64,000 bases of DNA, taken from NCBI GenBank assembly GCA_014729775.1, contig WJJJ01000007.1, forward strand, positions 94,302 through 158,301. Reading direction: 5' to 3'. Under the pieces are notes generated by a model. It was not told the DNA's origin and searched no databases. It worked only from the letters and a program-made list of their open reading frames with translations. The translations under genes were made by a program, and so were the position numbers. How positions within the stretch are numbered: the first letter of the stretch is position 1; every line of letters begins with the position of its first letter. The DNA is from Candidatus Omnitrophota bacterium (GTDB lineage: Bacteria; Omnitrophota; Gorgyraeia; Duberdicusellales; 4484-171). Positions 22,479 through 38,743 of this stretch are shown here, piece by piece.

Positions 22479-22499
22479 ACCGTTAAGGAGGAATACGTT

Positions 22500-23536: not shown

Positions 23537-23939
23537 CGCGGATCTCGTTTTTGATGAATGCGTCCGCTGGTGGAGAAGTCCGTGGTGGCCGCCGGTTCCG
23601 GTGGAGTTCCGGGAACTACAGCGTCACGCGGGAGAATGGGTATACGAACAGAAAATCAACATGCCCTGCGGTCCCCGATGGCGGGTGCGGCAGGTGCGCG
23701 CCGACCGCGGAGCGAAACGCGTCGAACGGAGATTTACCCGGGGAGTTTTTTCCGGCGGCGGGGAGCTGATAGATCTTCTGCCGGAGGAGGCGTCAACGAA
23801 AATTTCGTACGAGTTTTCTTTCCCTTCCCGGAATCCGGCGGTGGTATGCGCCTGGTACGCGGTGGCGAAATATTTTCACCGGCAAAGCGTGCAGAGAGTA
23901 TTCCATGCGATGAAAACCTATCTGGAGGCGGATGAATGA
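23499..23939 (+). CDS. SRPBCC-fold protein (polyketide cyclase/dehydrase-like), Trp/Arg-rich
   Basis: About 146 aa from the internal Met. Start is uncertain and it overlaps the previous gene out of frame. Fold assignment is by similarity pattern only. Confidence 0.4.
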   Translation: MIEHRQQIRIRTSADLVFDECVRWWRSPWWPPVPVEFRELQRHAGEWVYEQKINMPCGPRWRVRQVRADRGAKRVERRFTRGVFSGGGELIDLLPEEASTKISYEFSFPSRNPAVVCAWYAVAKYFHRQSVQRVFHAMKTYLEADE

Positions 23940-24946: not shown

Positions 24947-25542
24947 GCGCAGATCCGCAGCCCAAGATCGTATTTCCCAAAATAAAACTCACGGTCATTA
25001 AGAAAGAAGGGCATTGTTATCATCATTATGAGGTGGGTGACGAATTCATCCTGGACGACTTCACCCATCCGCCGAAGCATTTTTGCGCCGGTATTGTGAA
25101 ATCCGCGTTTCCCTGTTTTTATGCGCTTACCTTCGGGTCTGAATTCAAATTCATGGACAATACCAAATCGATTACGACTACTTGTCCCGATAACGGGAAG
25201 CTCACCTTTAAAATCGAACTGCTCGACGAACAGGGCGGGGTAATCGAAAAACCTAAGGAGAAGCCGCCGAAACCGAATCCGAAGCAGCTGGAGATTGAGG
25301 TGGAGGAAGTCCGCGGGCATTGTTTTTTCGGATACAAAAAGGGGGATACGTTTCGTACTACCGGGTTGAAAACCCCCGTGGACTTCTGCGGCGCGGCGTA
25401 CAGCGTGCTGTTCCCGGTATTGTTCGCGCTGAATTTCGGCGCCGAATTCCCGTTCGAAAAAAACCCGGTGTGCAAAACAGGAATCACCTGTCCCGATGGC
25501 GGCAACATCAAATTTAAAATTACAAGAGTGGAGGACCGATGA
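24943..25542 (+). CDS. Tandem-duplicated TIGR04076-like protein (two Cys/His-rich repeats)
   Basis: Two homologous halves of about 90 aa, each with EGHC/RGHC ... GDEF/GDTF ... FCxxxxxxxFP ... ALxFGxEF ... CPD(N/G)G ... FKI motifs. 4-nt overlaps with both neighbouring genes. Confidence 0.55.
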   Translation: MSADPQPKIVFPKIKLTVIKKEGHCYHHYEVGDEFILDDFTHPPKHFCAGIVKSAFPCFYALTFGSEFKFMDNTKSITTTCPDNGKLTFKIELLDEQGGVIEKPKEKPPKPNPKQLEIEVEEVRGHCFFGYKKGDTFRTTGLKTPVDFCGAAYSVLFPVLFALNFGAEFPFEKNPVCKTGITCPDGGNIKFKITRVEDR

Positions 25543-26792
25543 GAAGAGTCGTGATTACCGGACTCGGCGTGATCTGCGCCGCCGGAGAGGATAAAGACCG
25601 GTTTTATCAGAATTTGATCGACGGGGTGCCCTGCATTGAACGGGTTGAGAATTTTGACGTGAGTTTGTTTAATTCCAAAATTGCCTCTCAGGCGGCGGAT
25701 TTCGATCCGCGCAAATTTGATATTCCGGATTTTCAGCGCATGGACCGTTACGTCCAGATGTCACTGGCGTCGGCGAAACAGGCCGTGGACGATTCCGGGA
25801 TCGATTTTTCCCGGACCGACCGGCGCCGGTGCGGCGTGGTGCTCGCCAACGCGATCTGCGGCACGCGTTTCATGGAGGAAGAATTTTTGCTGGTGACCGA
25901 CTGGGGAAAAAATCCCATTGATCCGCGCAAAGGGCGTCCCTACCTGTATGACGCGGCCATGTTTAATACTCCCAGCGCGGAAATCGCGGCGCGTTACCGC
26001 ACACAGGGGATCAACTGTACGATTTCGACCGGGTGTACCGCCGGCACGGATTCGATCGGGTTTGCCTACGAGTTGATTCGGGAGGGCCGGCAGGAGTGCG
26101 TGCTCGCCGGCGCGGGAGAAGCGCCGATCACGCCGATCACCTTCGGCGCGTTCGATGTGGTAAACGTATTATCCAAAAGAAACGACGATCCCCATCGCGC
26201 GTCAAGACCGTTTGATCACCAGCGGGACGGATTCGTCATTTCCGAGGGCGCGGGAATTCTGATGCTGGAGGAATTAAATCATGCCCGGGAACGCGGCGCG
26301 CAGATCTATGCCGAAATCACCGGATACGGAACCAGTTGTAACGCCTATCATATGACGGATCTGCCGCCGGACGGGGAACCTATGGCCAGGTGCATGCGTG
26401 ATGCGCTTGCCGAAGCCGGCATTCCTCCGGATAAAATCGGATATGTGAACGCCCACGGCTCTTCCACCCGGCAGAACGACGCTTTTGAAACCGACGCGTA
26501 TAAAAAGGTATTTCAGGAGTATGCGTATCACGTACCCATTAGTTCCATAAAGTCCATGATCGGACATCCTTTGGCGGCGGCGAACGCGGTGGAAAGCGTA
26601 CTGTGCTGCATGGTGTTCCGGCACGGGTATCTTCCGCCGACGATTAATCATGAAGAGCCGGATCCGAAATGTGATCTCGATTACATACCGAACACGAAAC
26701 GAGAGGGTGCGCCGGAGTACATCCTGAAAACGAGCAGCGGGTTTTCCGGCATTCATTCTTCGATCGTTTTCAAAAGATGGAGCGCGCGATGA
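25539..26792 (+). CDS. Beta-ketoacyl synthase, type II PKS KS-alpha-like (FabF family), catalytically complete
   Basis: Active-site Cys in ISTGCTAGTDS. His residues in VNAHGSSTRQND and KSMIGHPLAAAN. 417 aa. Confidence 0.9.
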   Translation: MRRVVITGLGVICAAGEDKDRFYQNLIDGVPCIERVENFDVSLFNSKIASQAADFDPRKFDIPDFQRMDRYVQMSLASAKQAVDDSGIDFSRTDRRRCGVVLANAICGTRFMEEEFLLVTDWGKNPIDPRKGRPYLYDAAMFNTPSAEIAARYRTQGINCTISTGCTAGTDSIGFAYELIREGRQECVLAGAGEAPITPITFGAFDVVNVLSKRNDDPHRASRPFDHQRDGFVISEGAGILMLEELNHARERGAQIYAEITGYGTSCNAYHMTDLPPDGEPMARCMRDALAEAGIPPDKIGYVNAHGSSTRQNDAFETDAYKKVFQEYAYHVPISSIKSMIGHPLAAANAVESVLCCMVFRHGYLPPTINHEEPDPKCDLDYIPNTKREGAPEYILKTSSGFSGIHSSIVFKRWSAR

Positions 26793-28024
26793 AGGAACGA
26801 GTAGCCATTACGGGAATGGGAATAGTATCGCCCTGCGGTCTGAAAAAGGAAACGTTCTGGGCGAATTTGAAGCGGGCCGGATCGTACGTGGAAACCGTCA
26901 CACGATTCGACACGTCACTGTATCCGAGCCGGATCGCCGGACAGGTGCATGATCTTGATCCCTACACCCACCTTTCCGGCCGGTTGATCAAAAAAATCGA
27001 TGTGTTTTCTCATATGGCGCTGGTCGCCAGCGAACAGGCGCTTCAGGATGCCGGAGTGGATCCTGCCTCGGTGGACAAGAACCGGGTGGGGGTTTTCATG
27101 GGAAATGCTCTCGGTGGATGGCTGTTCGCGGAAACCGAGCTCAGAGACATGTATATCGAGGGTCGGGAAGGAATTTCGCCGTATATGGCCAGCGCGTGGT
27201 TTCCCGCGGCTCCGCAGGGACAGATTACGATTTATTATGGATTCAAGGGGTACAGCAAAACGATAGTCGCCGATCGAGCTTCTTCCGGACTCGCGTTATG
27301 GTACGGCGCAAGGACGATCAGGCAGAAAAAGAACGATTACGTATTGGCCGGAGGGATGGAAGCGCCTATTACCCCGTATGCCTTGCTGTGTGCCAATACC
27401 ATGGGCGGGTTATCGAAACAAAACCTCACGCCTGCCTCGGCGTATAAACCGTATGATTTATACCGCGACGGATTCGCCCTCGCAGAGGGCGCGGGCACCC
27501 TGATGCTGGAAAGCGAGACACAGGCGCGCCGGCGCGCGCGGCAGATTTACGGGTATCTTCAGGGGATCGGCTTTGCCTCGGACGGATACCATTACGCCCG
27601 GAGCGCTCCGGATTCGAGCGCGCTTGAATACGCGATCACCCAGTGCCTTGAAGATGCCGGATGGAAGACCGGCGAGGTCGATTACGTGTGTTTGGACGCG
27701 GAAGCGAGTCAGGTCGGCGACTGGTTGGAGTCCCGGGCGTTGAGAGAGGTGTTCGGCGCACATTGCGACCGGATGGCCATGAGCGCACCGAAATCGATGT
27801 TCGGTAATCTGTTGGGCGCGCAGACCGCGGTTGATCTGATTCTCACGTTGCTCTCGATGGAGCACGAGACGGTCCTGCCGACGATCAACTATCAAATGCA
27901 TGATCCTTACTGCGGGCTTGATTACACGCCGAACGTTCCCCGCCGCAGATCCATGCAAAAAGCGCTGCTGCTGTCCCGGGGCCGGGGCGGAATCCATGTG
28001 GTGGTGGCGGTCGAGAAAGCCTGA
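26777..28024 (+). CDS. KS-beta / chain-length-factor-like ketosynthase paralog lacking the Cys-His-His triad
   Basis: Thiolase fold, but the Cys position reads IVADRASSG and both His motifs are replaced (LDAEASQVGD, SMFGNLLGAQ). Overlaps KS-alpha by 16 nt. Confidence 0.8.
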   Translation: MERAMKERVAITGMGIVSPCGLKKETFWANLKRAGSYVETVTRFDTSLYPSRIAGQVHDLDPYTHLSGRLIKKIDVFSHMALVASEQALQDAGVDPASVDKNRVGVFMGNALGGWLFAETELRDMYIEGREGISPYMASAWFPAAPQGQITIYYGFKGYSKTIVADRASSGLALWYGARTIRQKKNDYVLAGGMEAPITPYALLCANTMGGLSKQNLTPASAYKPYDLYRDGFALAEGAGTLMLESETQARRRARQIYGYLQGIGFASDGYHYARSAPDSSALEYAITQCLEDAGWKTGEVDYVCLDAEASQVGDWLESRALREVFGAHCDRMAMSAPKSMFGNLLGAQTAVDLILTLLSMEHETVLPTINYQMHDPYCGLDYTPNVPRRRSMQKALLLSRGRGGIHVVVAVEKA

Positions 28025-28041
28025 GAAACAAAGGAGGGAGA

Positions 28042-28275
28042 ATGGAACTTTCCGAAGAAGTCCTTCAGACGATTTGTGAAACCTTGGAAGTAAAAAAGGA
28101 AGAGTGTCCGCCGGAACAGAAATTATACGATTCGATCGGGGTGGATTCCACGGAGATGGTCGAGCTGGTAGTCGCGCTCAATAAACGGTTCGGCATCAAA
28201 ATCGAAACGAACGAAATTACTAAGTTTTCGACGCCCTCTCAGATTTGTGAAATCGTCGCGAACAAGAAGGCATGA
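28042..28275 (+). CDS. Acyl carrier protein
   Basis: 77 aa. Phosphopantetheine-attachment context YDSIGVDSTEMVELVV. Confidence 0.8.
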   Translation: MELSEEVLQTICETLEVKKEECPPEQKLYDSIGVDSTEMVELVVALNKRFGIKIETNEITKFSTPSQICEIVANKKA

Positions 28276-28279
28276 TCCG

Positions 28280-29086
28280 ATGCGAATGGTGGATTTAAGC
28301 CTTCCTATCGACGATACCGCTTTTGAAGTGCACCCGTTGCGTATCGAGCGTACCGGACACAAGGAGGGGATCGAAAAGCTTAATAAAGTCATGATGTCAC
28401 GGATGCCGGGAGGAGCCGAACGCTTCAAGGCCGGTGAGCGCATCATCCGGCCTTCGGACGTGCCGGGTCAAGAGTTTCTTTCGCTGGAAATGGTCTACTC
28501 ATCCGTGCACAGCGGGACGCATTTGGATTATTCTTATCATTACGGAAGCCGGTCCGAGGGCCGGGCGTCGAAGCCGGCTTCGGAGATTCCCCTGGAATGG
28601 TGCGCCGGGCCGGGTGTGAAGCTGTCTTTGCGGGATGCGCAGCCGGGCGGGGCGATCACCGCAGACGACCTTCGGGCGGAACTGGACCGGATCGGGTATG
28701 GACTTAAGCCTTATGATATTGTGCTCATTTCCACCGGCTGCGACCGCTTGTTCGGCGGATCAGAATATTTCTCAGAATATCCGGGGATTGATCCCGGCGC
28801 GATCGATTTTCTTTTGGATTCCGGGATAAAAATTTTCGGGGTTGATACCATGGGAATTGACCGGCCGTATAAGTATATGATGAAGGAGTTCCTTGAGGAG
28901 AAAAACACGCAGGCGCTTTGGCCGGCGCATTTTCACGGCCGCAAAAGGGAATTCGTCCACATTGAACGTCTGGCGAATTTGGCGGCGCTTCCCGATTATG
29001 GATTTACCGTGTTCTGTTTTCCGGTGAAAATCCGTAATACCGGAGGAGCCTGGGCCAGGGTCGTGGCGCGGGTGCAAGAGCAGTGA
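28280..29086 (+). CDS. Cyclase-family protein (kynurenine formamidase-like fold, PF04199-type)
   Basis: About 268 aa from the ATG at 28280, just after the ACP stop. Metal-binding H-x-GTHxD-like motif (SSVHSGTHLD). Confidence 0.65.
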   Translation: MRMVDLSLPIDDTAFEVHPLRIERTGHKEGIEKLNKVMMSRMPGGAERFKAGERIIRPSDVPGQEFLSLEMVYSSVHSGTHLDYSYHYGSRSEGRASKPASEIPLEWCAGPGVKLSLRDAQPGGAITADDLRAELDRIGYGLKPYDIVLISTGCDRLFGGSEYFSEYPGIDPGAIDFLLDSGIKIFGVDTMGIDRPYKYMMKEFLEEKNTQALWPAHFHGRKREFVHIERLANLAALPDYGFTVFCFPVKIRNTGGAWARVVARVQEQ

Positions 29087-29118
29087 AAACAGGACGATGA
29101 AACGAAAGGAGGTTGTTC

Positions 29119-29547
29119 ATGGCGCATACGGTGAACAGAATCGTCATTGATGCCGATTACGAGAAAGTGTTCGAGATGAGCAACGATATCGGCCGCTGGA
29201 AAGAATTTTTTAATGAATATACCGATTCCAAAGTGCTCAAAAAGGAAGGGAAGAAAATTACCTTTGAATTAACCCATCAGAAAGGAACCCGCTGGACATC
29301 ATACCGGATATTGGCGAAAGAGGAGAGGTTCGCCTACGCGTCCCGGATGGAACCGATGGCTCCTTTTCAGTACATGAAAATCATATGGCTCTACCGGGAA
29401 ACCGAAGGGGGAACGGAGATGACATGGATTCAGGATTTCTCCATGGCGCCGGACGCGAAGGTGGATGATTCCCGGGCCGAACAGATGATTAACGAGCATT
29501 CCAAAGAAAATCTGAAGCGGTTTAAAGAGATCATCGAAAATTCCTAA
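29119..29547 (+). CDS. SRPBCC-fold protein (aromatase/cyclase-like, polyketide_cyc2-type)
   Basis: About 142 aa. AAGGAGG RBS 6 nt before the ATG at 29119. Confidence 0.6.
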   Translation: MAHTVNRIVIDADYEKVFEMSNDIGRWKEFFNEYTDSKVLKKEGKKITFELTHQKGTRWTSYRILAKEERFAYASRMEPMAPFQYMKIIWLYRETEGGTEMTWIQDFSMAPDAKVDDSRAEQMINEHSKENLKRFKEIIENS

Positions 29548-29552
29548 AGATC

Positions 29553-30686
29553 ATGCCGCGGAAACACTTTTGGGTATTCTGTCTGCTTTTTTTTACTCTT
29601 TCGTTCGGGGTCGCCGCGACGGCTGCGCTGGTTCCGTCGATCGCGGAGTATTTCGGACGGCCGAAAGAGGAGGCGATCAGGCTTACCTGGTTGTATATGC
29701 TTCCTTACGGCATTTTCGCGTTGTTCTGGGCTCCCCTCACCCGGGTAGTGAGAATAAAGACGCTGCTGACCTGCGCAACCGCGGGGTTTTCCGTCGCGGC
29801 GTTCCTGTTCAGTTTTGCGCCGACGTTGCCTCACGCGTTTCTCTACCGGTTTCTCATGGGGAGTTTCGGGTGCAGTTTTGTGCCGTTGTCGCTGATCGCG
29901 GTCGGCAAAACGGTCGATTCCGGCAAAAAAGGGAAATACATCGGAACGTTTTTTTCTCTTTCCTGGGTGTCGACGCTGATCAGCGTGTTCCTCAGCGGGT
30001 TCATTCCCTGGAGAATGATTTATCTTGTGCCTGCGGTGCTGGCGCTGTGCGCCTGTCTGTTGGTCCGCCTGTGGCTGGAAGATCTGGATTTCCGCCAGAA
30101 AGGGGTCGGGGTCAGTTATCTGAGGACTTTGCGCGATCCGGCGGCGTTTTCTTTCTTTCTGGTGATCATGGCCGGAAGTTTCTTGTATCACGGGGTGCAG
30201 CAGCGCCTGGGGATGTTTTTTGCGGACGCGTTTTCATTACGCCAGGTGGTGATCAGCAGTATTTATACGCTGGCTACGCTGAGCGCGATCGTGTTTGAAT
30301 TTACCGGAGGGCACCTGTGCAGTCGGTTCGGGAATATCCCGGTCACCCGCGTCGGGTTTTTCGTCATGAGCGGATTTATTCTGCTTTTGTTGTGTTCGCG
30401 GCAAATGCCGGTGCTGATCTGGAGCATTCCTCTTTGGGGCGCGGGATGGGCGTTGACCCACGTGGGGATCTCGTCGCGGTTGACCGATTTTCCCGATCAG
30501 GTGATGCGTGACGCGTCGAGTTTGAACAGTTCCCTGCGGTTTACCTTCGGGGGGCTGGGCGCGTTCGCCGGCGGGCTGTTATTGAACATAGTGGGATTCG
30601 GTTTTCTTTTTCTGATAATGGGAACGGGGATTGTTCTGTTAGGCGCAGTGCTGCCCAAAATGTTAGGGAGGAGAGGTGCAACATGA
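29553..30686 (+). CDS. MFS transporter (likely exporter)
   Basis: 377 aa, about 10-12 hydrophobic helices, MFS-like loop motifs. Confidence 0.8.
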   Translation: MPRKHFWVFCLLFFTLSFGVAATAALVPSIAEYFGRPKEEAIRLTWLYMLPYGIFALFWAPLTRVVRIKTLLTCATAGFSVAAFLFSFAPTLPHAFLYRFLMGSFGCSFVPLSLIAVGKTVDSGKKGKYIGTFFSLSWVSTLISVFLSGFIPWRMIYLVPAVLALCACLLVRLWLEDLDFRQKGVGVSYLRTLRDPAAFSFFLVIMAGSFLYHGVQQRLGMFFADAFSLRQVVISSIYTLATLSAIVFEFTGGHLCSRFGNIPVTRVGFFVMSGFILLLLCSRQMPVLIWSIPLWGAGWALTHVGISSRLTDFPDQVMRDASSLNSSLRFTFGGLGAFAGGLLLNIVGFGFLFLIMGTGIVLLGAVLPKMLGRRGAT

Positions 30687-31450
30687 AATCATTGGAAGGA
30701 AAAACGGCGATCGTGACCGGCGCCAGCGGCGGAATCGGACAGCAAATCGTGCGCAGGCTCGCGGCGCAGAAGATGAAAATCGTACTGGCCGCGCGGCGGA
30801 TGGAAGTACTTGAGGAGCTCAAATCCGGTCTCCCCGTGCCGGAAGACGCGGTATGCGTCAAATGCGACGTGACCGATCAGCGGAATCTGGAGGAACTTGT
30901 CGCCGCCGCGGTACGTTCCTTCGGGAAGATCGATGCCCTGATAAACGGCGCCGGCGTATCCAGTCAGCATCCGTTCTGGGAACAGCCGCTCGAAGATATC
31001 GGAAAGATTATGTATACCAACTATTACAGTTATGTCATGCTTGCCCGTCTGGTGGTGAATCATATGAAAGACGCCGGCAGCGGACATATCGTAAACATTA
31101 CCAGCGGGTCGGTAATGGTGGACCCGCCGCCGCGTAATTTTATCGTGTATACCTCGCTGAAGGTCGCGCTGCGGGCGTTCGCCAAGGGGCTGTTCTGGGA
31201 AATGAGAGATTTCGGTATCAAGGTGACTTCTATTTTCCCCGGAGTGACCAAAACGCCTTTAACCGGAAAATTGAAAGAGGTCTCGAAAACACAGGAGAGA
31301 CTTATTGATCCGGCGGTCGTTGCCGATACCGTGGTGTTCGCGCTCCGGCAGCCGGCCAATGCCTGTCCTTTGGAGCTGGCGGTGATCAACCAGCAGACTC
31401 CCTGGACCAAGCCGGTCATTCCGTTTTCGCAGGACCATCCGGAAGAATAA
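30683..31450 (+). CDS. Short-chain dehydrogenase/reductase (SDR) family oxidoreductase
   Basis: TGASGGIGQ Rossmann motif, NAG, and YxxxK (YTSLK). 255 aa. ATGA overlap with the MFS gene. Confidence 0.85.
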   Translation: MKSLEGKTAIVTGASGGIGQQIVRRLAAQKMKIVLAARRMEVLEELKSGLPVPEDAVCVKCDVTDQRNLEELVAAAVRSFGKIDALINGAGVSSQHPFWEQPLEDIGKIMYTNYYSYVMLARLVVNHMKDAGSGHIVNITSGSVMVDPPPRNFIVYTSLKVALRAFAKGLFWEMRDFGIKVTSIFPGVTKTPLTGKLKEVSKTQERLIDPAVVADTVVFALRQPANACPLELAVINQQTPWTKPVIPFSQDHPEE

Positions 31451-31521
31451 AGAAGGAAGAGGCTGAGAGGGGAAGGAACAAAAGTGCAGAGATATCAAAG
31501 TATCGCGTTTGATTTTTTGCG

Positions 31522-31550
31522 TGCCGGCGGCCCGGCAGGAAGTTTTCGTT
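31522..31550 (+). terminator. Terminator-like hairpin (TGCCGG-cggc-CCGGCA) plus T-rich tract after the SDR gene
   Basis: 6-bp GC stem with 4-nt loop, followed within 5 nt by TTTTCGTTT. Suggests a transcription-unit break inside the cluster. Confidence 0.3.
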
Positions 31551-31587
31551 TGATGTGCTCACAGAAGAAAAAATAAAAAAGGAGGAG

Positions 31588-33051
31588 ATGATGAAGGTTT
31601 TATTCGTTTCACCGAAACTCGGTGCATGGGCTACTCACGGAGAACACCGGGCGCCGAACCAGCTCTACGCGCAATGGGCCGCGTATATCCGGCAGCAGGG
31701 CTATGAAGATCTGGAAGTGCTGGATTGTAAGGCCTGGGATATTCCCATGGACGCAATGGTGGAAGAGGTCAAAAAAAAGAAACCGGATGCGGTGGTGTTG
31801 GGCGACATGCTGCATTCCTACGGAGGATTCGCGATCTTGTGGTATTTCAACGAAACCGCTTCGCGGATCAAGCATGCGCTGCCGCAGACCAGGATTATTG
31901 TCGGAGGGCTTTGGTATTCATCGATGCCGACGGAAACACTAAAGCAGAATCCCGCGATTGATTACGTGGTGATGGGAGAAGAGGAAGCGTTCTGCGAATT
32001 GATCGACGCGCTGGCAAAGGAGAAGTCAACCGAAGCGATTCCCGGGGTGACTTCGAGGATTGACGGGAAAGTCGTGCTGGGGCCGCACCGTCCTCTGCGG
32101 ATGGATCTGGATTCTCTTCCTTTGCCGGCCTATGATTTGTTTCCGATGGACAAATACGTCGGCCATACGCACTGGAAGCCGTTCGTGGAAATGGTAACCT
32201 CACGGGGCTGTCCCTCGGCCTGTACGTTTTGCTACGAGTGGGACCAGTATGATCCCCGGCACCCGGAAGATTTCCTCAAATGGCGGGCCAAGTCCCCGGA
32301 ACGGGTGATCGAGGAGCTGGAGTTACTGCACACGAAGTTCGGCACTAAGGTGGTGGTCATCCAGGACGATAACTTTAACGTGAATCCCGACCGCGTGAAG
32401 CGGTTTTGCGAATTGAAGAAAGAGCGGAATATTCCGGTCAAATGGGTGTCACTGGGCCGTGCAGTGGATTGGATCAACTGCGAGAAAATTCTTCCGCTCA
32501 TGAAAGAAACCGGGATGTTTATCGGAGTGTTCGGGATCGAAGTGACGACTCCCGAAGAATTAAAGCAGATCGCCAAAGGGATCACGGTTGAGCAGATCCA
32601 GAAAACCGTGGAAATTCTTCGCGCCAATGATATCGCGATCGTTGCCGATATCATGATGGGGTTTGACGACGATACCGAACAGCGGATTAAACAACGTTAC
32701 GAATTTACCGACAAAGTCGATCCCGACATTCTTTGGATCGGATACGTCACGCCCGCGCCGAATTCGCCGATTTGGCGGCAGCGGGTGAAACGGGGGGAGA
32801 TCGATCCGTCCAAGATCGATTTCCTGAAGTGGGATTTTCTCCATCCGGTAATGGATACCCCGCATCTGACGGTGGATGATTACGGCCGGTTGGGCGCATG
32901 GTGCATGCGGGAATTTTATTCGAAACCCGGGCGCATCCAGCGGATCATGACCAGTGATTTTGACGAACTCGCGAAACTGTGTTTCCAGGACGTGATGCGC
33001 GGAGTTTCGAAATGGGAAGAAGGAGCAGTGAAGGGAGAGAAACACATCTGA
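31588..33051 (+). CDS. B12-binding domain radical SAM enzyme (class B rSAM)
   Basis: N-terminal B12-binding-like region. CxxxCxxC radical-SAM cluster motif in GCPSACTFCYEWDQ. GGAGG RBS. Start is the first or second ATG of MMKV. Confidence 0.85.
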   Translation: MMKVLFVSPKLGAWATHGEHRAPNQLYAQWAAYIRQQGYEDLEVLDCKAWDIPMDAMVEEVKKKKPDAVVLGDMLHSYGGFAILWYFNETASRIKHALPQTRIIVGGLWYSSMPTETLKQNPAIDYVVMGEEEAFCELIDALAKEKSTEAIPGVTSRIDGKVVLGPHRPLRMDLDSLPLPAYDLFPMDKYVGHTHWKPFVEMVTSRGCPSACTFCYEWDQYDPRHPEDFLKWRAKSPERVIEELELLHTKFGTKVVVIQDDNFNVNPDRVKRFCELKKERNIPVKWVSLGRAVDWINCEKILPLMKETGMFIGVFGIEVTTPEELKQIAKGITVEQIQKTVEILRANDIAIVADIMMGFDDDTEQRIKQRYEFTDKVDPDILWIGYVTPAPNSPIWRQRVKRGEIDPSKIDFLKWDFLHPVMDTPHLTVDDYGRLGAWCMREFYSKPGRIQRIMTSDFDELAKLCFQDVMRGVSKWEEGAVKGEKHI

Positions 33052-33062
33052 CGAATCGTGAA

Positions 33063-33101
33063 GATCCTTGATTCCTGATCCAGGATCCCGAATCAAGGAT
33101 C
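33063..33101. repeat. Near-perfect 39-nt palindrome (GATCCTTGATTCCTGATCC-A-GGATCCCGAATCAAGGATC) between the rSAM and amidohydrolase genes
   Basis: Read directly from the sequence. Outer 12-bp arms are perfect inverted repeats. A related 13-mer CTCGATCCTTGAT recurs at 41541-41553. Confidence 0.6.
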
Positions 33102-33116
33102 GAGCATCTATTTATT

Positions 33117-34034
33117 ATGATTTGCGACGCGCACATTCATTACATTCCGCAAGAGCTTTCCGAGCATACTTCGTTTTACCGCGGAGTATGGACGCGCAGG
33201 GATGCGTTGTACCGTTATCTGGAGGAGGAAGGGATCGAACGGGCCCTGCTGGTATATCCTTCCACCGACGCTCATCTCAAGATCGGGATTCGGGACACCG
33301 TGCGGATGTATAACTCCGCGGCCGAACGGGTGATGCGGGATAATCCCAAAGTGCTCGCGGCGGCCTTGGTAAATCCGCACGAACGGGATTCTCTGGAGGT
33401 GCAGATTGATTCCCTTGCGCGGCGGGGATTCCGGGCGGTCAGCCTGAGTTCAAGTTACGAGGGCAAGTTTCTGGTGCGGGAACTGTTTCCGCTTTTTGAC
33501 GCCGCCGCCCGGCATCAAATGGCGGTGTACATTCATCCTCAGACCATTAACCCGATCGGTTTTGAACGGGTCAAAGATCCGCTGCTGATGCCGGTTCTTG
33601 AATACAGCTTTGACCTTTCGATGTGCATGGGATTAATGATGATGGAAGGGGTGTTTTCCCGCTTTCCCCTGCCGTTTGTGTTTTCCTCGCTGGGCGGAGT
33701 GATTCCCCTGCTCGCCGGCCGTTTCGATCGGGTGTATGCGATGCTGCGCGCGCGGGGATACGTGAAGGATTTAGGCCGGCCGCCCACGGAAATCCTGGGC
33801 ACGGTGTATGTTGATATTTCCGGAGCGACGCCCGCGACGCTGGCGTTGGCCCGAGATCTTTACGGGGATGACCGTCTTCTCTGGGGTTCCGATTATCCGG
33901 TACACGCCGATGCGGACCGGCGCGGTGCGTTACTGGCGGATGTTCCCGCGGCCGCCAGGCGTAAAATTCAGCGGGAGAATTTTTTTGCGGTGTTCGGTAT
34001 GACGATTCCGCCGGGAAAAAAGGAGCGGGAATGA
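33117..34034 (+). CDS. Amidohydrolase family protein (amidohydrolase_2/TIM-barrel metal-dependent hydrolase)
   Basis: N-terminal MICDAHIHY metal-binding motif. 305 aa. No SD is visible upstream. Confidence 0.75.
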   Translation: MICDAHIHYIPQELSEHTSFYRGVWTRRDALYRYLEEEGIERALLVYPSTDAHLKIGIRDTVRMYNSAAERVMRDNPKVLAAALVNPHERDSLEVQIDSLARRGFRAVSLSSSYEGKFLVRELFPLFDAAARHQMAVYIHPQTINPIGFERVKDPLLMPVLEYSFDLSMCMGLMMMEGVFSRFPLPFVFSSLGGVIPLLAGRFDRVYAMLRARGYVKDLGRPPTEILGTVYVDISGATPATLALARDLYGDDRLLWGSDYPVHADADRRGALLADVPAAARRKIQRENFFAVFGMTIPPGKKERE

Positions 34035-34837
34035 TCGTATACGTGAACGGCTCTTTTCGCGATCAAAGTGCCTGCGGAGAAGTGTATGAACCCGGCTTTC
34101 TTTTCGGATGGGGATTGTTTGAAACCATGCGGGTCTACGGCGGCAAGCTTCCTTTTCTCCATCTGCATCTGGAGCGGTTGAAACGCGGCATGGGCCTGGT
34201 GCGTCTGGAACCGGTTTCATGTGAATGGGAACATACGCTGCAGGAAACACTGCGGCGCAACGAGATAGACGAAGGATACGTGCGTATTTCTGTGTATAAA
34301 CGGAAGGAAGGAACCGGGGTAAGCATATATGCGGCGCCGTTTCGATATTACGGTCCGCAGATGTATGAACGCGGGGTTGATCTTTTCTTTTCTCCCTGTA
34401 CGAGGCATCCCGGCGAGATTGCGTCGCGGGTCAAGTCGATGAGTTATCTGCAGAACCGTCTTGCCTGGCTCCAGGCCCAGGAACAGGGATGCGCTGAGGC
34501 GCTCATGGCCGGTCCCTGCAGAACACTGCTCGGCGGCGCCCGGAGTAATGTGTTTATCGTCCGTCACGGGGAAACAGTTACCCCGGCGGCCCGGGACGGG
34601 GCGTTTGAAGGGGTGACCAGGAAAGTCGTGCTGGATATGCTGAGCGATTTAAAGATACCGTTTCGGGAAGGGAAGGTATCTGCCGGCGATGTGTATGCCG
34701 CCGACGAGGTATTTCTTACCAGCGCGCTCATGGAGATCATGCCGGTCGCCCGCTGCGGACGGCTTGAGGTAGGAACGCGGGAGAAAACCGTGATCCCGGC
34801 ATTGCGCGCCCGGTATCGGGAGATTGTGTATGAGTAA
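34031..34837 (+). CDS. Class IV aminotransferase (branched-chain aminotransferase/ADC lyase family), PLP-dependent
   Basis: 268 aa with fold-type IV motifs (ETMRVYGGK, ...NVFIV..G...TP). ATGA overlap with the amidohydrolase. Confidence 0.75.
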   Translation: MIVYVNGSFRDQSACGEVYEPGFLFGWGLFETMRVYGGKLPFLHLHLERLKRGMGLVRLEPVSCEWEHTLQETLRRNEIDEGYVRISVYKRKEGTGVSIYAAPFRYYGPQMYERGVDLFFSPCTRHPGEIASRVKSMSYLQNRLAWLQAQEQGCAEALMAGPCRTLLGGARSNVFIVRHGETVTPAARDGAFEGVTRKVVLDMLSDLKIPFREGKVSAGDVYAADEVFLTSALMEIMPVARCGRLEVGTREKTVIPALRARYREIVYE

Positions 34838-35765
34838 TCCGTCCGGGAAGTTCCAAAGTCCGTTGCTGTTTCCGGTACGGCTCAACCGGGATTCTCTCAC
34901 GGTGCTGGACGAGACCGCCCTGCCGTTTGAGGAAAAATATCATGAGGTGAGGGACCTTGCCGCGGCCGAGAAACTCGTGCGCGAGATGAAAACCCGGTCG
35001 TTAGGACAGGTGCTGTTGTTCTTCGGCTGCGCGGTGTTGTGGGAAAACCGGGTTTCACCCGAGGAGATCGCCCGGCGCATGCACCGGGCGCGGCCTACGT
35101 TCGATTTCGAGTATCTGGCCCGGCTCCTGCGTGCATGGCAGCGGCGGGGAGTTCCCTACCGGACCGCAACGGAGCGGTTCCTCGCCGGATTCGACGCTGC
35201 CCGAAAAGCGCGGGCCGACGAGCTTGCTTCCCTGCTTCCTTCGCCGGCGAATGTGCTGACAATCTGCAACGTGAACGGAGAACTTCTCTATTTGGCGCAG
35301 GCACTGAGCACGCGCAGTGTTCCCGTGCATGTGTATGTGGCAGAAACCAGGCCTTATTTGCAGGGTAGTCGTCTTACCTTTTGGGAGCTTCAGCGTGCCG
35401 GCGTGCCCTCGACACTGTTGTGCCAGTCGCAGGCGGCGGAGATAATGCAGCAGGACACGGTGAATGCCGTCGTGACCGGAGCCGATCGCGCGACTGTCCG
35501 GGGCGATATTATGAACAAGATCGGCACGTACGCGCTGGCCCGCTGCGCGCGGTATTTTAATATTCCGGTGTATGCGTTAACGCAGTATCCCCGGGACGTT
35601 GATATCGACCGGATCCCTCTGGAAGAGCGTCCGCCGGAAGAGGCGTTTCTCTTTTTACCGGATTCCTATCCCCGGGTAGATGCCGTGTATCCGGCGTTCG
35701 ATGTGACCAAAAAGGAATATCTCACCCGGTCTGTCGAATTGAAGGTGTCCAGTGAAATTAGCTGA
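34830..35765 (+). CDS. eIF-2B alpha/beta/delta-family isomerase, MtnA-like (S-methyl-5-thioribose-1-P / 5-deoxyribose-1-P isomerase-like)
   Basis: Conserved C-terminal motif VVTGADRATVRGDIMNKIGTYALA is equivalent to MtnA GADRIAANGDTANKIGTY. 8-nt overlap with the upstream gene. Confidence 0.75.
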   Translation: MSNPSGKFQSPLLFPVRLNRDSLTVLDETALPFEEKYHEVRDLAAAEKLVREMKTRSLGQVLLFFGCAVLWENRVSPEEIARRMHRARPTFDFEYLARLLRAWQRRGVPYRTATERFLAGFDAARKARADELASLLPSPANVLTICNVNGELLYLAQALSTRSVPVHVYVAETRPYLQGSRLTFWELQRAGVPSTLLCQSQAAEIMQQDTVNAVVTGADRATVRGDIMNKIGTYALARCARYFNIPVYALTQYPRDVDIDRIPLEERPPEEAFLFLPDSYPRVDAVYPAFDVTKKEYLTRSVELKVSSEIS

Positions 35766-36222
35766 TATCGATCAGGGAATATTGGTGTGGGGTCCCGTAT
35801 CGGAGGAAGGTCTCGATCGTCTCCAGGCCGAAGGCCGGCTGGCGGTGGCGGCTGAATGCCGGCCTTTTCTGGTGGGACTCAGGTATAATGTTCCGCGGTT
35901 GCAGGCCCGGGGAATCCGGTTCGTGTATTGTCCGGATGAAGCGGTCGGGCTGCTTTGCGGACAGGGACGGCTTGGAAAAACATTTTTGTTTCTCCGGCGC
36001 TTCGATCGGGATACGTTGACGGGGTTAAGCGGCGTGGGGCTGGCGTATGTGCTCAGCCGGCTCCACGGAATTACGATCGAGGAATTTCTTCAGGGACCGC
36101 TTCCGGCGGAGAACTGGGATCCGGACGCGGCAACGCTCGCGAACAAGCCGGTACTTCCCTCCATCGTCCCCCCGGGCAAGGTGAGAAGCCGTGAGACGGA
36201 AATGGTAAGGAGAATCCGATGA
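35752..36222 (+). CDS. Hypothetical protein; possible degenerate paralog of the MtnA-like C-terminal segment
   Basis: GTG start. LQARGIRFVYCPDEAVGLLCGQGRLGKTFLFLRRFDRDTLTGLSGVG parallels LQRAGVPSTLLCQSQAAEIM...VVTGADRATVRGDIMNKIGT of the upstream gene. Could still be non-coding. Confidence 0.3.
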   Translation: MKLADIDQGILVWGPVSEEGLDRLQAEGRLAVAAECRPFLVGLRYNVPRLQARGIRFVYCPDEAVGLLCGQGRLGKTFLFLRRFDRDTLTGLSGVGLAYVLSRLHGITIEEFLQGPLPAENWDPDAATLANKPVLPSIVPPGKVRSRETEMVRRIR

Positions 36223-37211
36223 CCGAAGAAAAGAAAAAGACCGAGATCATCCGCTGGGCCGAACGGCTCAACCAACGAGGACTGGTAAGCGCGCGCAGCG
36301 GGAACCTGTCCTGTAAAGACGGACGGGGAAATCTTTTCGTGACCGCGCACGACAGTTATTTGGGGGATCTTTCTCCGCAGGAGATTGTGCGGATAGATCT
36401 TGCCGGGAAAAAAATCGAGGGAGGACCCGATCCGACCAGCGAGAGTTCCCTGCACTGCGGTATCCACCGGAGATTTCCGGAAATGGATGCGGTAGTGCAC
36501 GCCCATTCTCCGTGGACGACGGCGTTCTTTCATTATTACCGGACACTGGAGATTTTTTCGTTCGAAGCCCGTTTCTACCTGGGACAGCTTCCCGTGATCG
36601 CGCAGGAAACCCCTACCGTGACCGATCCCGAGCCGGTACTGAACGCGCTGGACACGGCGAATATCGTGGTGTTACAGCATCACGGAGTAGTCACCGCGGG
36701 GAAAGACTTCCGGGAAGCCGCAAGTCTCGTCGAGTTGCTCGAAGAGCAGGCACGGGTAAACCTGATGCTTCGTCGTCCTTTTGCCGATGCGGAGAAAGAG
36801 GATTCGCCGGACCGGGAGGAGGCCGTGCAGAAAAAAACGTACCCCATGCTTTCGGTTGCGCACCGTGAGCGGCTCGCGGAAATCGTGAATGGGGACGAAG
36901 AGGTGCAGCGGCTCGGCCGGAAGTACGGTCTTACCTGTACCCTGGCGGTTAGAAATCAGGAAAACGGGAAAACGATGAGGTTTCAATATCAACGGGGGCG
37001 GATTATCAGCGTCGATGAAGCGCGGGACGCCGAATTCGTCATCATAGGGAATGAACCGGTGTTGAAAAAAGTGTTTAACCGGCAGCTGGATCCATTTGTC
37101 GCGTTGACCCAGGGGAAGGTAAAAACAAAAGGTGATTTTTCCAAGATGAGCCGGTGGTATCCGGTGATGGTGCGGACCTTCCAGTTATGGGAGCAGGCAC
37201 CGGTTGAATAA
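36219..37211 (+). CDS. Class II aldolase/adducin-domain protein fused to a C-terminal SCP2 sterol-carrier-like domain
   Basis: N-terminal about 190 aa class II aldolase fold (metal-binding His motifs HAHSPW, LQHHGVV). C-terminal about 110 aa SCP2-like (...GKVKTKGDFSKMSRW...). AAGGAG RBS. Confidence 0.7.
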   Translation: MTEEKKKTEIIRWAERLNQRGLVSARSGNLSCKDGRGNLFVTAHDSYLGDLSPQEIVRIDLAGKKIEGGPDPTSESSLHCGIHRRFPEMDAVVHAHSPWTTAFFHYYRTLEIFSFEARFYLGQLPVIAQETPTVTDPEPVLNALDTANIVVLQHHGVVTAGKDFREAASLVELLEEQARVNLMLRRPFADAEKEDSPDREEAVQKKTYPMLSVAHRERLAEIVNGDEEVQRLGRKYGLTCTLAVRNQENGKTMRFQYQRGRIISVDEARDAEFVIIGNEPVLKKVFNRQLDPFVALTQGKVKTKGDFSKMSRWYPVMVRTFQLWEQAPVE

Positions 37212-37244
37212 AGAGCGGAGAAATCAGCCAAAGGAGTCGAGACC

Positions 37245-38681
37245 ATGAATATATTTCCTTATTATATTGACGGCGAGGCGCGCCGCAGCGGGCAGGAAAA
37301 AGAAATAAGAAATCCGGCGAGCGGCGAAGTATTCGCACGGTGCTGGCATGCCCGGCCCGAGGATGTTAAAGACGCGGTGATCGCGGGCAGGCGCGCTTCG
37401 GCCGAATGGGGAGAAGCAACATTTCAGGAACGCGCGATTTTACTGCGAGAGATCGCCCGGGTGCTGCGGGAACACGTGCACGAACTGGCAGAGCTTGAAT
37501 CCAGGGAAATCGGGAAACTGCTCAAGGAATCATTGTTTGTCGATATCCCGCTTGCTGCGGAAGTATTTGAATACTATGCGTCTTTCCTGGAGACGCTCGA
37601 ACAAAAAACAATGGAGAGCGCGTTTGGACGTGAAGAAGTGCTTTTTGATCCCTACGGCGTGTGCGGGATTTTCCTGCCGTACAACGTGCCCCTGATGATT
37701 TTCGGGTACAGCGCCGCCGCCGCGCTCGCGGCCGGAAACGCCGTGATTCTCAAACCCTCGGAGTACGGGCAGTTGTCGGTTTTGCGGCTTATGGGATTGA
37801 TCCGGTCCTTCGATATGCCCAGGGGGCTGGTGCAGGTAGTGACCGGCGAAGGGGGCGTGATCGGGGACTGCCTCTCCAGGAGCGAGGTCGATCTTATTTC
37901 GTTTACCGGATCAAGAAAAACCGCGCAAAGGATTATCCGGAATTCGGCCGATGCCCCCAAGAAGATTATGTGTGAATTGGGCGGAGCGAACGTGACCGCG
38001 GTATGGGAAGATGCGAATCAGGACGCGGCGGTGCAAAATTTACTGGCCTCGTCTTTTCTCAAACAAGGACAGATATGTATCGGTACCAGTATTGCTTTGA
38101 TCGAAGAAAAGATCTATGATCGCTTCATAGAGGAGTTCTGCCGACGGATAGATTTGATTCCTCAGGGAGATCCGTTTTTGCCTGAGACCGGATTGGGCCC
38201 TCTTCCGTCTTCCGAATACGCCGCGGCCGTGGACCGCCGTGTTCGGGAATGCCTGCGCCGGCATGGGGGGCGGCTGCTGCGCGGAGGAGTCTGGGAGAAA
38301 GAATCCGGTCTTGTGTATCCTCCCACGGTTATCGAAGTGCCCCATGTGGTCTATGAAGAATTTTTCGCACCGGTGGTATTGGTCAAGAGATGCAGCCGGC
38401 AGGAGATCGAACCCGCGATTCAGGCGAATCCGTCCGGTCTGGTACTGCAGTTGTGGACGGCGGATGCCGGGCGGGCCCGGTGTATCGCCCGCCGGGCGCG
38501 GTACGGAACGGTGTGGATCAACACCTTCGCCCAGATGAATGCCCAGACTCCGTTCGGAGGACAACGGACGAGCGGGTGGGGCCGGAACCTCGGAAAAGCG
38601 GGGTTTTTTGAGTATGTTCAGCTCAAGCACATAGGGTACGGCAGGCAGTCCAGTCCGGTGGAAGGCTGGTTCGGGGTGTAA
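37245..38681 (+). CDS. Aldehyde dehydrogenase family protein
   Basis: 478 aa. ALDH Glu/Cys motifs (ELGGAN; catalytic-Cys context GQICIGTS). AAGGAG RBS. Confidence 0.9.
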   Translation: MNIFPYYIDGEARRSGQEKEIRNPASGEVFARCWHARPEDVKDAVIAGRRASAEWGEATFQERAILLREIARVLREHVHELAELESREIGKLLKESLFVDIPLAAEVFEYYASFLETLEQKTMESAFGREEVLFDPYGVCGIFLPYNVPLMIFGYSAAAALAAGNAVILKPSEYGQLSVLRLMGLIRSFDMPRGLVQVVTGEGGVIGDCLSRSEVDLISFTGSRKTAQRIIRNSADAPKKIMCELGGANVTAVWEDANQDAAVQNLLASSFLKQGQICIGTSIALIEEKIYDRFIEEFCRRIDLIPQGDPFLPETGLGPLPSSEYAAAVDRRVRECLRRHGGRLLRGGVWEKESGLVYPPTVIEVPHVVYEEFFAPVVLVKRCSRQEIEPAIQANPSGLVLQLWTADAGRARCIARRARYGTVWINTFAQMNAQTPFGGQRTSGWGRNLGKAGFFEYVQLKHIGYGRQSSPVEGWFGV

Positions 38682-38714: not shown

Positions 38715-38743
38715 TTGACAGATGAAAAAGAGTGTGCTATTAT
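38715..38743 (+). promoter_or_regulatory. Consensus sigma70 promoter TTGACA-17-TATTAT ending 8 nt before the rplU ATG (candidate leaderless start)
   Basis: TTGACA at 38715-38720, TATTAT at 38738-38743, rplU ATG at 38752. The ORF-track upstream ATG at 38722 lies inside the promoter. Confidence 0.5.

Follow-up and report, generated by a model that had tools for sequence, protein, structure and literature searches.

The plus-strand genes at 34830-38681 of a 64-kb stretch of DNA (the window) from a Candidatus Omnitrophota metagenome-assembled genome (MAG) encode an MtnA-like isomerase, a class II aldolase and an aldehyde dehydrogenase (ALDH), and belong to an enzyme module that also comprises a nucleoside phosphorylase of the PNP_UDP family (PNP) and an AMP-forming acyl ligase. 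Our preferred reading, to which we give a probability of about one half, is that this module is a diverged relative of the dihydroxyacetone phosphate (DHAP) shunt that converts a nucleoside to DHAP plus an activated acid, probably supplying the starter unit of the polyketide synthase (PKS) encoded in the same cluster while removing a nucleoside derived from S-adenosylmethionine (SAM).

The module is part of one densely packed array of plus-strand genes, about 18 kb in length (20958-38681). Around 34830-38681 the gene junctions either overlap or are no more than 66 nt apart, so a single operon is plausible. Window proteins are 100% identical to GF333_02000, GF333_02075 (the isomerase, as identified by homologue search) and GF333_02085, which are annotated as hypothetical at NCBI. 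An earlier note on this DNA had described the isomerase, aldolase, ALDH and PNP, together with a B12-binding radical SAM (rSAM) enzyme; we find all of these genes on the plus strand where it had put them, with the corresponding Pfam matches, and the isomerase motif that it quoted, VVTGADRATVRGDIMNKIGTY, is present in the protein encoded at 34830-35765. It had also described the isomerase, aldolase and ALDH as lying in a row. Their order is correct, but they are not strictly adjacent, given that an open reading frame (ORF) of 156 amino acids (aa) intervenes at 35752-36222. This ORF, which we call IF2Bs, had been overlooked, as had a C-terminal SCP2 domain of the aldolase and the membership of the ligase at 20958-22478 in the module.

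Scanning one genome per species with an alignment of six rSAM homologues, we found relatives of the rSAM enzyme in at least 566 species genomes. The best 80 of these are 71-82% identical to it, as against roughly 50-60% for the products of its neighbouring genes, and nearly all are labelled Omnitrophota. On this count the cluster occurs in 566 or more species genomes, almost all of them Omnitrophota. When the window proteins were placed on 85 loci, the whole cluster proved to be conserved in three arrangements. The first is that of the window, with the ligase and PNP genes at the 5' end and the isomerase, the optional IF2Bs, the aldolase and the ALDH at the 3' end. In the second, genes for a short-chain dehydrogenase/reductase (SDR) and an Amidohydro_2 protein are followed by PNP, isomerase, aldolase, in some cases an LsrF-like protein and a Zn-dependent alcohol dehydrogenase (Zn-ADH), then ALDH and sometimes the ligase; PNP, isomerase, aldolase, ALDH and ligase form an unbroken series in loci L059, L063 and L084. 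In the third, ligase, PNP, isomerase, IF2Bs, aldolase and ALDH all precede the PKS genes, and are contiguous in L035 and L058. Counted over all loci, the ligase leads directly to PNP 18 times, PNP to the isomerase 18 times, the isomerase (with or without IF2Bs) to the aldolase 51 times, the aldolase to ALDH 37 times and ALDH to the ligase three times.

Because these adjacencies recur across the arrangements, we regard the phosphorylase, isomerase, aldolase, ALDH and ligase as one mobile module. PNP, isomerase and aldolase are contiguous in at least 18 loci; in the window, PNP lies 11.6 kb from the isomerase, in the same operon-like cluster. An arrangement that recurs in 80 or more independent genomes is far beyond chance. 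At locus L004 the module takes the form ligase, PNP, isomerase, rSAM, IF2Bs and aldolase, followed by an MMPL/LolA-like/DUF1302 exporter, with no ketosynthase (KS) gene nearby; the rSAM enzyme inside this module is 37% identical to that of the window. Four loci (L006, L011, L021 and L042) carry the titles Planctomycetia, Methanosarcinales archaeon or Pseudomonadota, and their clusters are 75-82% identical to Omnitrophota ones; these are probably mislabelled or mis-binned MAG contigs.

The module also exists on its own. To find distant relatives of the isomerase we searched 1.8 billion cluster representatives exhaustively with HMMER, and obtained proteins of 35-45% identity, several of which are fusions of 470-510 aa. 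One of these, P0512, is encoded in an operon consisting of an FeS protein (Fer4_8 plus CCG, GlcF-like), PNP, the fused isomerase, a 327-aa aldolase, an AMP-forming ligase and a 109-aa ORF. The aldolase of this sister operon aligns with that of the window from end to end, SCP2 domain included, at 34% identity. Between the two PNPs, which share the DMV and RGxGxT signatures, identity is 46%, and between the ligases it is 34%. A metagenome scan placed the operon on at least 15 contigs of 52-66% G+C, with a MarR gene at its head and housekeeping genes on its flanks, and no rSAM or KS gene within 8-10 kb. The contigs (L090-L111; for example L108, 7373-14351) derive from higher-GC soil and sediment metagenomes. 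Since both the ligase and the SCP2 domain are found in the sister operon, they are intrinsic to the module, and since that operon lacks rSAM and KS genes, the module is an autonomous unit that has been joined to PKS and rSAM genes in Omnitrophota.

Turning to the individual enzymes, the isomerase scores 166 bits against PRK05720 (cut-off 271) and 152 bits against TIGR00512 (cut-off 279), both of them MtnA models, and its best matches in the Protein Data Bank are the MtnA structures 2yrf and 1t9k, at about 100 bits. Its scores against the ribose-1,5-bisphosphate (R15P) isomerase model TIGR00511 (71 bits, cut-off 314) and the eIF2B models (33-42 bits) are far lower, and by score it falls with neither of these families, either of which would have counted against the reading of the earlier note; nor does the cluster contain a gene for RuBisCO or AMP phosphorylase, which would be the context of an R15P isomerase. 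Residues Arg56, Arg-Pro-Thr 88-90, Cys146, Asn147 and Asp219-Arg220 and the motifs ETRPYLQG and NK/GTY are invariant in 52 homologues. Alignment with 2yrf and 1t9k maps Cys146 and Asp219 to the catalytic Cys160 and Asp240 of Bacillus subtilis MtnA, while Arg56 and Arg88 correspond to the phosphate-binding arginines. The substrate loops of canonical MtnA (RGAPAIG and CNAGALATxxYGTALG) are not retained in the family, and throughout it the loops flanking the active site are shorter than those of Thermotoga maritima MtnA by 3 and 7 aa. The sister-operon isomerase has an equally short loop after the catalytic Cys-Asn (THCNISGE), together with the form MKTRAFGQV. The co-movement of the block, the adjacency of PNP and isomerase and the invariance of catalytic residues all uphold the logic that had been read from the window alone, of a phosphorylase followed by a 1-phosphate isomerase, a class II aldolase and an ALDH.

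IF2Bs has no Pfam match of its own. Comparing its family with that of the isomerase by hhalign gives a probability of 97.3% (E 1.9e-11), with the alignment covering the Rossmann half; the E-x-R-P motif is kept, and the catalytic Cys and Asp are absent. It is encoded in 22 of 53 loci, and in the remaining 31 the isomerase stop codon overlaps the aldolase start. We link the two ORFs because natural fusions of both exist (P0361, 467 aa; P0512, 511 aa; P0527, 474 aa). From these sequences IF2Bs is likely to be an optional, non-catalytic partner of the isomerase. A 474-aa fusion of the same kind is encoded beside a Usp gene, without PNP or aldolase, at L088 (GCA_002347965.1, 10001-11425); because it stands alone, the two-part isomerase architecture is wider than the module. 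One member of the cluster to which this fusion belongs is labelled Nitrospirota.

The PNP is likewise a diverged member of its family. All of its NCBIfam scores are below threshold, with 93-97 bits against DeoD models (TIGR00107, 93 against a cut-off of 232) and 17.5 against the methylthioadenosine (MTA) phosphorylase model TIGR01694 (cut-off 275), and there are weak similarities to HpnG (45 bits against 187) and futalosine hydrolase (23 against 125). Among solved structures it comes nearest to the hexameric MTA phosphorylase of Sulfolobus solfataricus (1jds, 94.5 bits). Homologues across Omnitrophota are 66-74% identical, the catalytic Asp (VSDN) and the phosphate-binding Arg and Ser are kept, and a loop of the form RGDGxTxYYV is specific to the family. 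All 46 family members have Val where the VEME motif has its ribose-binding Glu (VDMV).

Ordinary nucleoside catabolism should be weighed here. PNP would then act on adenosine or inosine, with a free 5'-OH, the isomerase would form ribulose 1-phosphate, and the aldolase would release DHAP and glycolaldehyde, to be oxidised to glycolate. The PNP is DeoD-like and has an N-terminal His in a context resembling PH[ILM], which we take to be the counterpart of DeoD His4, the residue that binds the nucleoside 5'-OH; the aldolase has a weak match (67 bits) to the haloarchaeal ribulose-1-phosphate aldolase, and the protein at the head of the sister operon is GlcF-like. Against this, the ribose-binding Glu is lost, we know of no MtnA-family enzyme dedicated to converting ribose 1-phosphate to ribulose 1-phosphate, and the SCP2 domain, the type of ligase and the linkage to rSAM and PKS genes are all left unexplained. 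We consider this reading very improbable.

The catalytic residues of class II aldolases are fully conserved in the module's aldolase. Each of 80 homologues has Asn29, Glu75, His94, His96 and His155, which match in FucA (Escherichia coli numbering) the DHAP-phosphate site Asn29, the catalytic Glu73 and the Zn ligands His92, His94 and His155. By profile score and by a Foldseek search with the full AlphaFold2 model (pLDDT 89.9) the protein is equidistant from FucA (2opi), YgbL/OtnC (6voq), aq_1979 (2irp) and DrdA (6btg), the four structures all being matched at about 1e-13, within one order of magnitude. No NCBIfam model is matched above threshold, the scores being 96 bits for OtnC, 96 and 92 for aldolases, 74 for the MtnB model PRK09220 and the 67 bits for the haloarchaeal enzyme mentioned above. 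Such comparable scores are what might be expected if the protein were instead an MtnB-type dehydratase or an OtnC-type decarboxylase in a salvage-like or tetronate-like route, or if the module ran in reverse and made an unusual sugar nucleoside by joining DHAP with a long-chain aldehyde, the three upstream reactions being reversible in principle. We give these possibilities very little credence. The MtnB equivalog TIGR03328 is matched at only 58 bits (cut-off 137), the cluster contains no MtnC/W/X/D-like genes (enolase-phosphatase, dioxygenase) and no kinase partner, and the DHAP-phosphate site and the Zn and Glu residues are those of aldolases. Running in reverse would also have to contend with an aldehyde-consuming and effectively irreversible ALDH placed directly after the aldolase in 37 loci.

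What sets this aldolase apart is its second domain. A typical class II aldolase is a single domain of about 200-215 aa, whereas the window protein has 330 aa, with a C-terminal region that is found throughout its family and here matches SCP2 (PF02036) at 30.2 bits, above the gathering cut-off of 21.3; the same match is precomputed for about two-thirds of the homologues. Modelled alone (pLDDT 91), this region matches Thermus thermophilus SCP2 (2cx7) in Foldseek with a TMq of 0.85 and a root-mean-square deviation of 1.6 Å, and the top 46 matches are all SCP2 domains, including UbiJ-SCP2, those of alkylsulfatases and the SCP-2L domain of MFE-2. Its conservation across the 80 homologues equals that of the catalytic domain. 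The modelled structure indicates that this is a true SCP2 fold for which lipid binding is predicted, and its presence suggests either a lipophilic aldehyde or a protected hand-over.

The last two enzymes lead to an activated acid. In all 38 ALDH homologues the catalytic Glu (ELGG) and Cys (GQxC) are present, as in non-acylating enzymes; the nearest curated families, namely those of betaine aldehyde (BADH), aminobutyraldehyde and phenylacetaldehyde dehydrogenases, are all matched below cut-off. Non-acylating ALDH chemistry is effectively irreversible, which is why we take the direction to be from aldehyde to acid. The ligase is best matched by the long-chain-fatty-acid-CoA ligase model PRK06187 (387 bits, cut-off 476), and its NGWGMTET motif has Gly at the position of the Trp that closes the acyl pocket of acetyl-CoA synthetase. 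By these features it would be a medium- or long-chain ligase and not one of the acetate type.

We infer the chain nucleoside plus inorganic phosphate, to base plus pentose 1-phosphate, to pentulose 1-phosphate, to DHAP plus aldehyde, to acid, to acyl-AMP, because no other chemistry employs all five enzymes in the order that is conserved. In this scheme PNP would phosphorolyse a purine nucleoside bearing a modification, or lacking the oxygen, at C5', giving the base and a pentose 1-phosphate, which the isomerase (through Cys146 and Asp219, here perhaps aided by the half-copy subunit) would convert to the pentulose 1-phosphate. The Zn aldolase would cleave this to DHAP and an aldehyde consisting of C4-C5 plus the 5-substituent, with the SCP2 domain holding or channelling the aldehyde; ALDH would oxidise the aldehyde to the acid, and the ligase would adenylate it. 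Most likely the nucleoside would come from SAM consumed by the rSAM enzyme, and the activated acid would prime the acyl carrier protein (ACP) as a polyketide starter, such that an inhibitory by-product would be removed at the same time.

The PKS genes bear upon the last of these steps. KSα has the Cys-His-His triad in 60 of 60 homologues, while all 66 KSβ sequences carry Arg (45) or Lys (21) in place of the Cys, with Asp or Asn at the His positions, and never the Gln that in chain-length factors permits priming by decarboxylation of malonyl. Both proteins score closest to FabF. Given that KSβ lacks the decarboxylating Gln, we describe the cluster as type II PKS-like and not as a minimal type II PKS. 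No acyltransferase or KSIII gene is found in the cluster, leaving the ligase as the only candidate for acyl loading. That the acid is used, and not discarded, is argued by the absence of this Gln and of these loading enzymes, by the presence of a ligase, and not one of the acetate type, in the modules of both lineages, and by the SCP2 domain. As an alternative to by-product disposal, the earlier note had suggested that the enzymes may convert a (deoxy)pentose into a unit from which the product is built. The sub-threshold scores, the SCP2 domain, the ligase and the existence of an autonomous operon fit this at least as well as they fit disposal.

Disposal alone is nonetheless a serious rival, albeit one that we think somewhat unlikely. 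A cluster-linked DHAP shunt would clear the 5'-deoxyadenosine (5'-dAdo) formed by the rSAM enzyme, and perhaps MTA, to adenine, DHAP and acetaldehyde, the latter going to acetate and possibly on to acetyl-CoA, with no carbon passing specifically into the product. This is the simplest chemistry, and an rSAM gene accompanies the Omnitrophota cluster in every case; PNP finds its nearest solved relative in an MTA phosphorylase, MtnA is the family nearest to the isomerase, and the sister operon, lacking rSAM, resembles a general salvage operon. In addition, a DeoC-family protein that passes the equivalog model for LsrF (354 bits, cut-off 297) is encoded with a Zn-ADH in 13-15 loci, where 5-deoxyribulose 1-phosphate could, as we read it, be oxidised at C4 to 3-hydroxy-5-phosphonooxypentane-2,4-dione (P-HPD) and cleaved to DHAP and acetyl-CoA. 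DHAP-shunt and Drd clusters are, moreover, widespread (PMC6079011). On the other side, acetaldehyde has no need of a strongly conserved SCP2 domain, the ligase is not of the acetate type, the enzymes all diverge from their housekeeping families in the substrate loops, and the minimal locus L004 would devote four of its six enzymes to disposal. A further point against disposal is the report in a preprint (10.64898/2026.06.07.730766) of a KO-annotated MTA phosphorylase in most Gorgyraeia, which may be either a separate gene or this PNP. Overall, the earlier proposal of an MTA/5'-dAdo DHAP shunt holds as to its logic. The canonical shunt does not, as every protein falls below the model cut-offs, the aldolase carries SCP2, an AMP ligase is present and the module exists also as an operon of its own with no rSAM gene nearby.

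The rSAM enzyme itself, the presumed source of the SAM-derived nucleoside, has an invariant CxxxCxxC motif, and is best matched by BchE (202 bits) and HpnJ (145 bits), both far under cut-off. In the pairs HpnH/HpnG (hopanoid pathway) and MqnE/MqnB (futalosine pathway), an rSAM enzyme is accompanied by a member of the PNP_UDP family, which strips the base from an adenosine adduct linked through its 5' carbon, so that ribose carbons enter the product. The pairing of rSAM with PNP and the weak HpnG and HpnJ similarities recall these pathways; the differences are that this rSAM enzyme is an unrelated B12-domain protein, that PNP reaches only 45 of 187 bits for HpnG, and that trimming of the ribose by an isomerase and an aldolase would be an additional feature.

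By analogy, and as a special case of our preferred reading, the rSAM enzyme could add a 5'-deoxyadenosyl radical to a hydrophobic acceptor, PNP could remove the adenine, and the isomerase and SCP2-aldolase could cut the ribose to leave the acceptor longer by two carbons as an aldehyde, which would be oxidised, adenylated and then used by KS and ACP or exported. Such trimming of an adenosyl adduct would best explain the SCP2 domain (whose fold is like those of UbiJ-SCP2 and alkylsulfatases, which hold lipophilic substrates), the MMPL, LolA-like and DUF1302 or RND exporters that adjoin the cluster, and the shortened isomerase loops next to the catalytic Cys; the lost ribose-binding Glu of PNP, the long-chain type of the ligase and the B12-rSAM gene embedded within the module at L004 are also in its favour. 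It would require, to our knowledge, an activity never shown for a B12-domain rSAM enzyme, given that HpnH and MqnE, the adenosylating rSAM enzymes known to us, do not belong to the B12-domain type. No rSAM gene lies near the sister operon, and the LsrF equivalog score points to a small substrate. We judge it distinctly unlikely. The more general notion that carbon of the 5'-deoxyadenosyl group of SAM enters the cluster product, whether by such a radical C2 homologation of a lipophilic acceptor or by stoichiometric recycling of 5'-dAdo into the next acyl starter, we hold to be unlikely.

Several observations weigh against the starter-supply reading that we prefer. In two curated complete genomes (L086, CP070807, and L087, CP070684) hundreds of genes separate the PNP and ligase block from that of the isomerase. 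ALDH is missing beside the aldolase in L004, L006 and L023, and from the sister operon. The absence of rSAM within 8-10 kb of that operon means that a dedicated rSAM enzyme is not required by the module, and the ligase could load an unrelated acid. Finally, the loci with an LsrF-like thiolase and a Zn-ADH inside the module, neither of which is present in the window, fit a small C5 substrate, passing from 5-deoxyribulose 1-phosphate through P-HPD to DHAP and acetyl-CoA, and thus plain salvage.

In these loci, the LsrF-like and Tdh-like Zn-ADH genes stand beside the aldolase or the ALDH (L001, 14195-16071; also L003, L011, L012, L017, L022, L036, L040, L049 and L084), and may provide an alternative route from 5-deoxyribulose 1-phosphate to DHAP and acyl-CoA. 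LsrF, the P-HPD thiolase of autoinducer-2 (AI-2) processing, acts on what is presumably the C4-oxidised form of 5-deoxyribulose 1-phosphate, and the likeness is restricted to these related loci, where the score is above the equivalog cut-off. Unlike the Lsr system for AI-2, they have no genes for an Lsr transporter, kinase or LsrG, and the LsrF-like gene lies beside Zn-ADH and aldolase. We found no literature linking LsrF to 5-deoxyribulose 1-phosphate.

Among characterised pathways, the DHAP shunt (MtnP, or MtnN with MtnK; MtnA; Ald2) and the DrdK/DrdI/DrdA pathway of Bacillus follow the same order of reactions, with a phosphorylase, an IF-2B/MtnA isomerase and a class II Zn aldolase that yields DHAP and an aldehyde, and their genes are clustered (PMC6079011). 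The module shares with them the catalytic Cys and Asp of MtnA and an aldolase that is structurally as near to DrdA as to FucA. It differs in its sub-threshold scores throughout, in its hexameric PNP of the DeoD/SsMTAP type with the Glu-to-Val change, in the loop deletions and optional partner or fusion of its isomerase, in the SCP2 fusion, in the extension by ALDH and AMP ligase to an activated acid, and in being set within a PKS/rSAM cluster and not with sugar transporters. The fluorometabolite pathway of Streptomyces cattleya, comprising a fluorinase, the FlB phosphorylase, a 5-FDRP isomerase, an aldolase and a fluoroacetaldehyde dehydrogenase, turns SAM-derived 5'-fluoro-5'-deoxyadenosine into a wanted C2 acid (PMC6079011, PMC6302742). 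It thus has the same chain from phosphorylase to ALDH, and is a precedent for the acid as product and not waste. The cluster, by comparison, contains no fluorinase/chlorinase gene (SAM hydroxide adenosyltransferase family), so that the rSAM enzyme would have to supply the nucleoside, and the ligase, SCP2 and PKS are additional. On the polyketide side, the cluster resembles type II PKSs with non-acetate starters, and the type II PKS-like cispentacin system AmcF/AmcG with its adenylating loader, in having KSα/KSβ heterodimer genes, an ACP as a separate protein, cyclases of the PF04199 and SRPBCC families, an SDR and, as sole loader candidate, an enzyme that forms adenylates. The Arg or Lys in place of the Gln of KSβ and the closeness of the KS proteins to FabF are points of difference, and a nucleoside-derived route to a starter is unprecedented.

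The features of the array are collected in Table 1. Upstream it is flanked by the housekeeping genes gatCAB and tsaD and a tRNA gene, and downstream by rplU, proBA and nadD. The gene order of the left block is kept in about 50 loci, and the block of PF04199 cyclase, SRPBCC, MFS and SDR genes in 55-71; the Amidohydro_2 gene is found in 71 loci, and the class IV aminotransferase-fold gene, which is optional in the family, in 26 only. The gene for the 96-aa protein is easily overlooked, since longer and probably spurious ORFs overlap it on both strands, and the tandem TIGR04076 protein is always encoded directly before KSα. No second IF-2B or PNP gene, nor any separate mtn pathway, is present within the 64-kb window.

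Table 1. Features of the plus-strand gene array in the window.
Feature	Position	Strand	Evidence and remarks
AMP-forming acyl ligase	20958-22478	+	PF00501 + PF13193
PNP_UDP phosphorylase, hexameric type	22500-23249	+	PF01048 PNP_UDP_1, E 1e-33
Small conserved protein, 96 aa	23246-23536	+	weak PCP_red/DUF2621 similarity; present in 48 loci
Conserved left block: PCP_red/DUF2621-like, ~150-aa protein of unknown function, ApbA/PanE reductase, tandem TIGR04076	23246-25542	+	
Tandem TIGR04076-family protein	24943-25542	+	duplicated ~90-aa Cys-rich unit
KSα, KSβ (chain-length-factor-like) and ACP	25539-28275	+	PF00109/PF02801 twice; ACP DS motif
KSβ partner	26777-28024	+	
ACP ORF	28042-28275	+	DS motif
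PF04199 cyclase, SRPBCC cyclase/dehydrase, MFS transporter, SDR	28247-31450	+	
B12-binding radical SAM enzyme	31588-33051	+	PF02310 + PF04055, E 8e-11 and 3e-23
Amidohydro_2 (ACMSD/LigW-type decarboxylase family) and class IV aminotransferase-fold protein	33117-34837	+	
IF-2B-family (MtnA-like) isomerase	34830-35765	+	PF01008 IF-2B, E 3.1e-35
Degenerate isomerase half-copy (IF2Bs), 156 aa	35752-36222	+	hhalign
Class II (Zn) aldolase domain	36219-36788	+	PF00596 Aldolase_II, E 1.5e-36; whole gene 36219-37211
SCP2 domain (predicted lipid-binding) fused to aldolase	36831-37211	+	PF02036, E 5.9e-7
Non-acylating aldehyde dehydrogenase	37245-38681	+	PF00171 Aldedh, E 6e-113

Just 5' of the ligase gene are a tRNA gene (20370-20443) and a gene for an EutQ-like cupin (20499-20768). 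The same cupin position is seen in CP070807 and, of the two complete genomes with a divided module, only there. In both, the split follows a truncated ApbA gene (99-119 aa), the ligase and PNP genes being about 490 and 920 genes away, and the rSAM block of CP070807 has no adjacent KS genes. The strongest promoter-like site of the region (38715-38743; 11/12 match, extended -10) immediately follows the ALDH stop codon; it precedes the likely true start of rplU and fits an operon boundary there. Overall, the scan for promoters and terminators gave no excess over shuffled expectation, and a search of the window and the region upstream of the cluster against Rfam returned two tRNAs only, with no SAM, S-adenosylhomocysteine or cobalamin riboswitch.

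Lipid-type exporters flank the clusters of other genomes, with MMPL, LolA_like/DUF1329 and DUF1302 genes downstream in about eight loci and an RND pump with a small P-II-like protein upstream in about ten (L001, L004, L006, L019, L023, L031, L056; L049, L059, L060 and others), and PadR regulators are found at the 5' end. Prompted by PMC10066038 we considered a link to a quinone head group, and rejected it, there being no UbiA-, UbiD- or UbiX-like protein among the recurrent flanking families; of these, F18 is a helical protein, F21 a secreted one and F24 a cupin.

Previous work has touched on the cluster only in part. KS-CLF pairs (ketosynthase and chain-length factor) of 'Candidatus Omnitrophica' have been catalogued without functional analysis (PMC10132072), and 'ladderane-type' biosynthetic gene cluster calls have been reported for Omnitrophota (PMC9902471). 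The two main genomic surveys of the phylum mention neither polyketide genes nor any conserved gene cluster; radical SAM figures in them solely as a Pfam domain within the giant-protein modules of the preprint. Searches for Omnitrophota polyketides, for radical SAM with ketoacyl and for a deoxyadenosine starter unit returned no description of the module or cluster, which we therefore regard as a variant of DHAP-shunt logic not previously described in the searchable literature. Three of its features, namely the fusion of aldolase to SCP2, the degenerate isomerase partner and the obligatory ligase, have not been described for the DHAP shunt.

The cluster is the sole conserved cluster of secondary-metabolite-like character in Omnitrophota, an uncultured phylum of ultra-small and possibly parasitic cells. 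Its vertical inheritance among housekeeping genes suggests a product of the core type, such as a lipid, pigment or cofactor, and not an antibiotic of accessory use. For annotation, the gain is a family whose members are now labelled 'hypothetical', 'methylthioribose-1-phosphate isomerase' or 'L-fuculose-phosphate aldolase', and for biochemists the module offers four or five small soluble enzymes. If our preferred reading is true, the logic of the DHAP shunt would extend from the disposal of waste to the supply of an activated acyl unit; and were either of the routes by which SAM carbon enters the product to prove true, it would be a previously unknown use of SAM across a whole candidate phylum.

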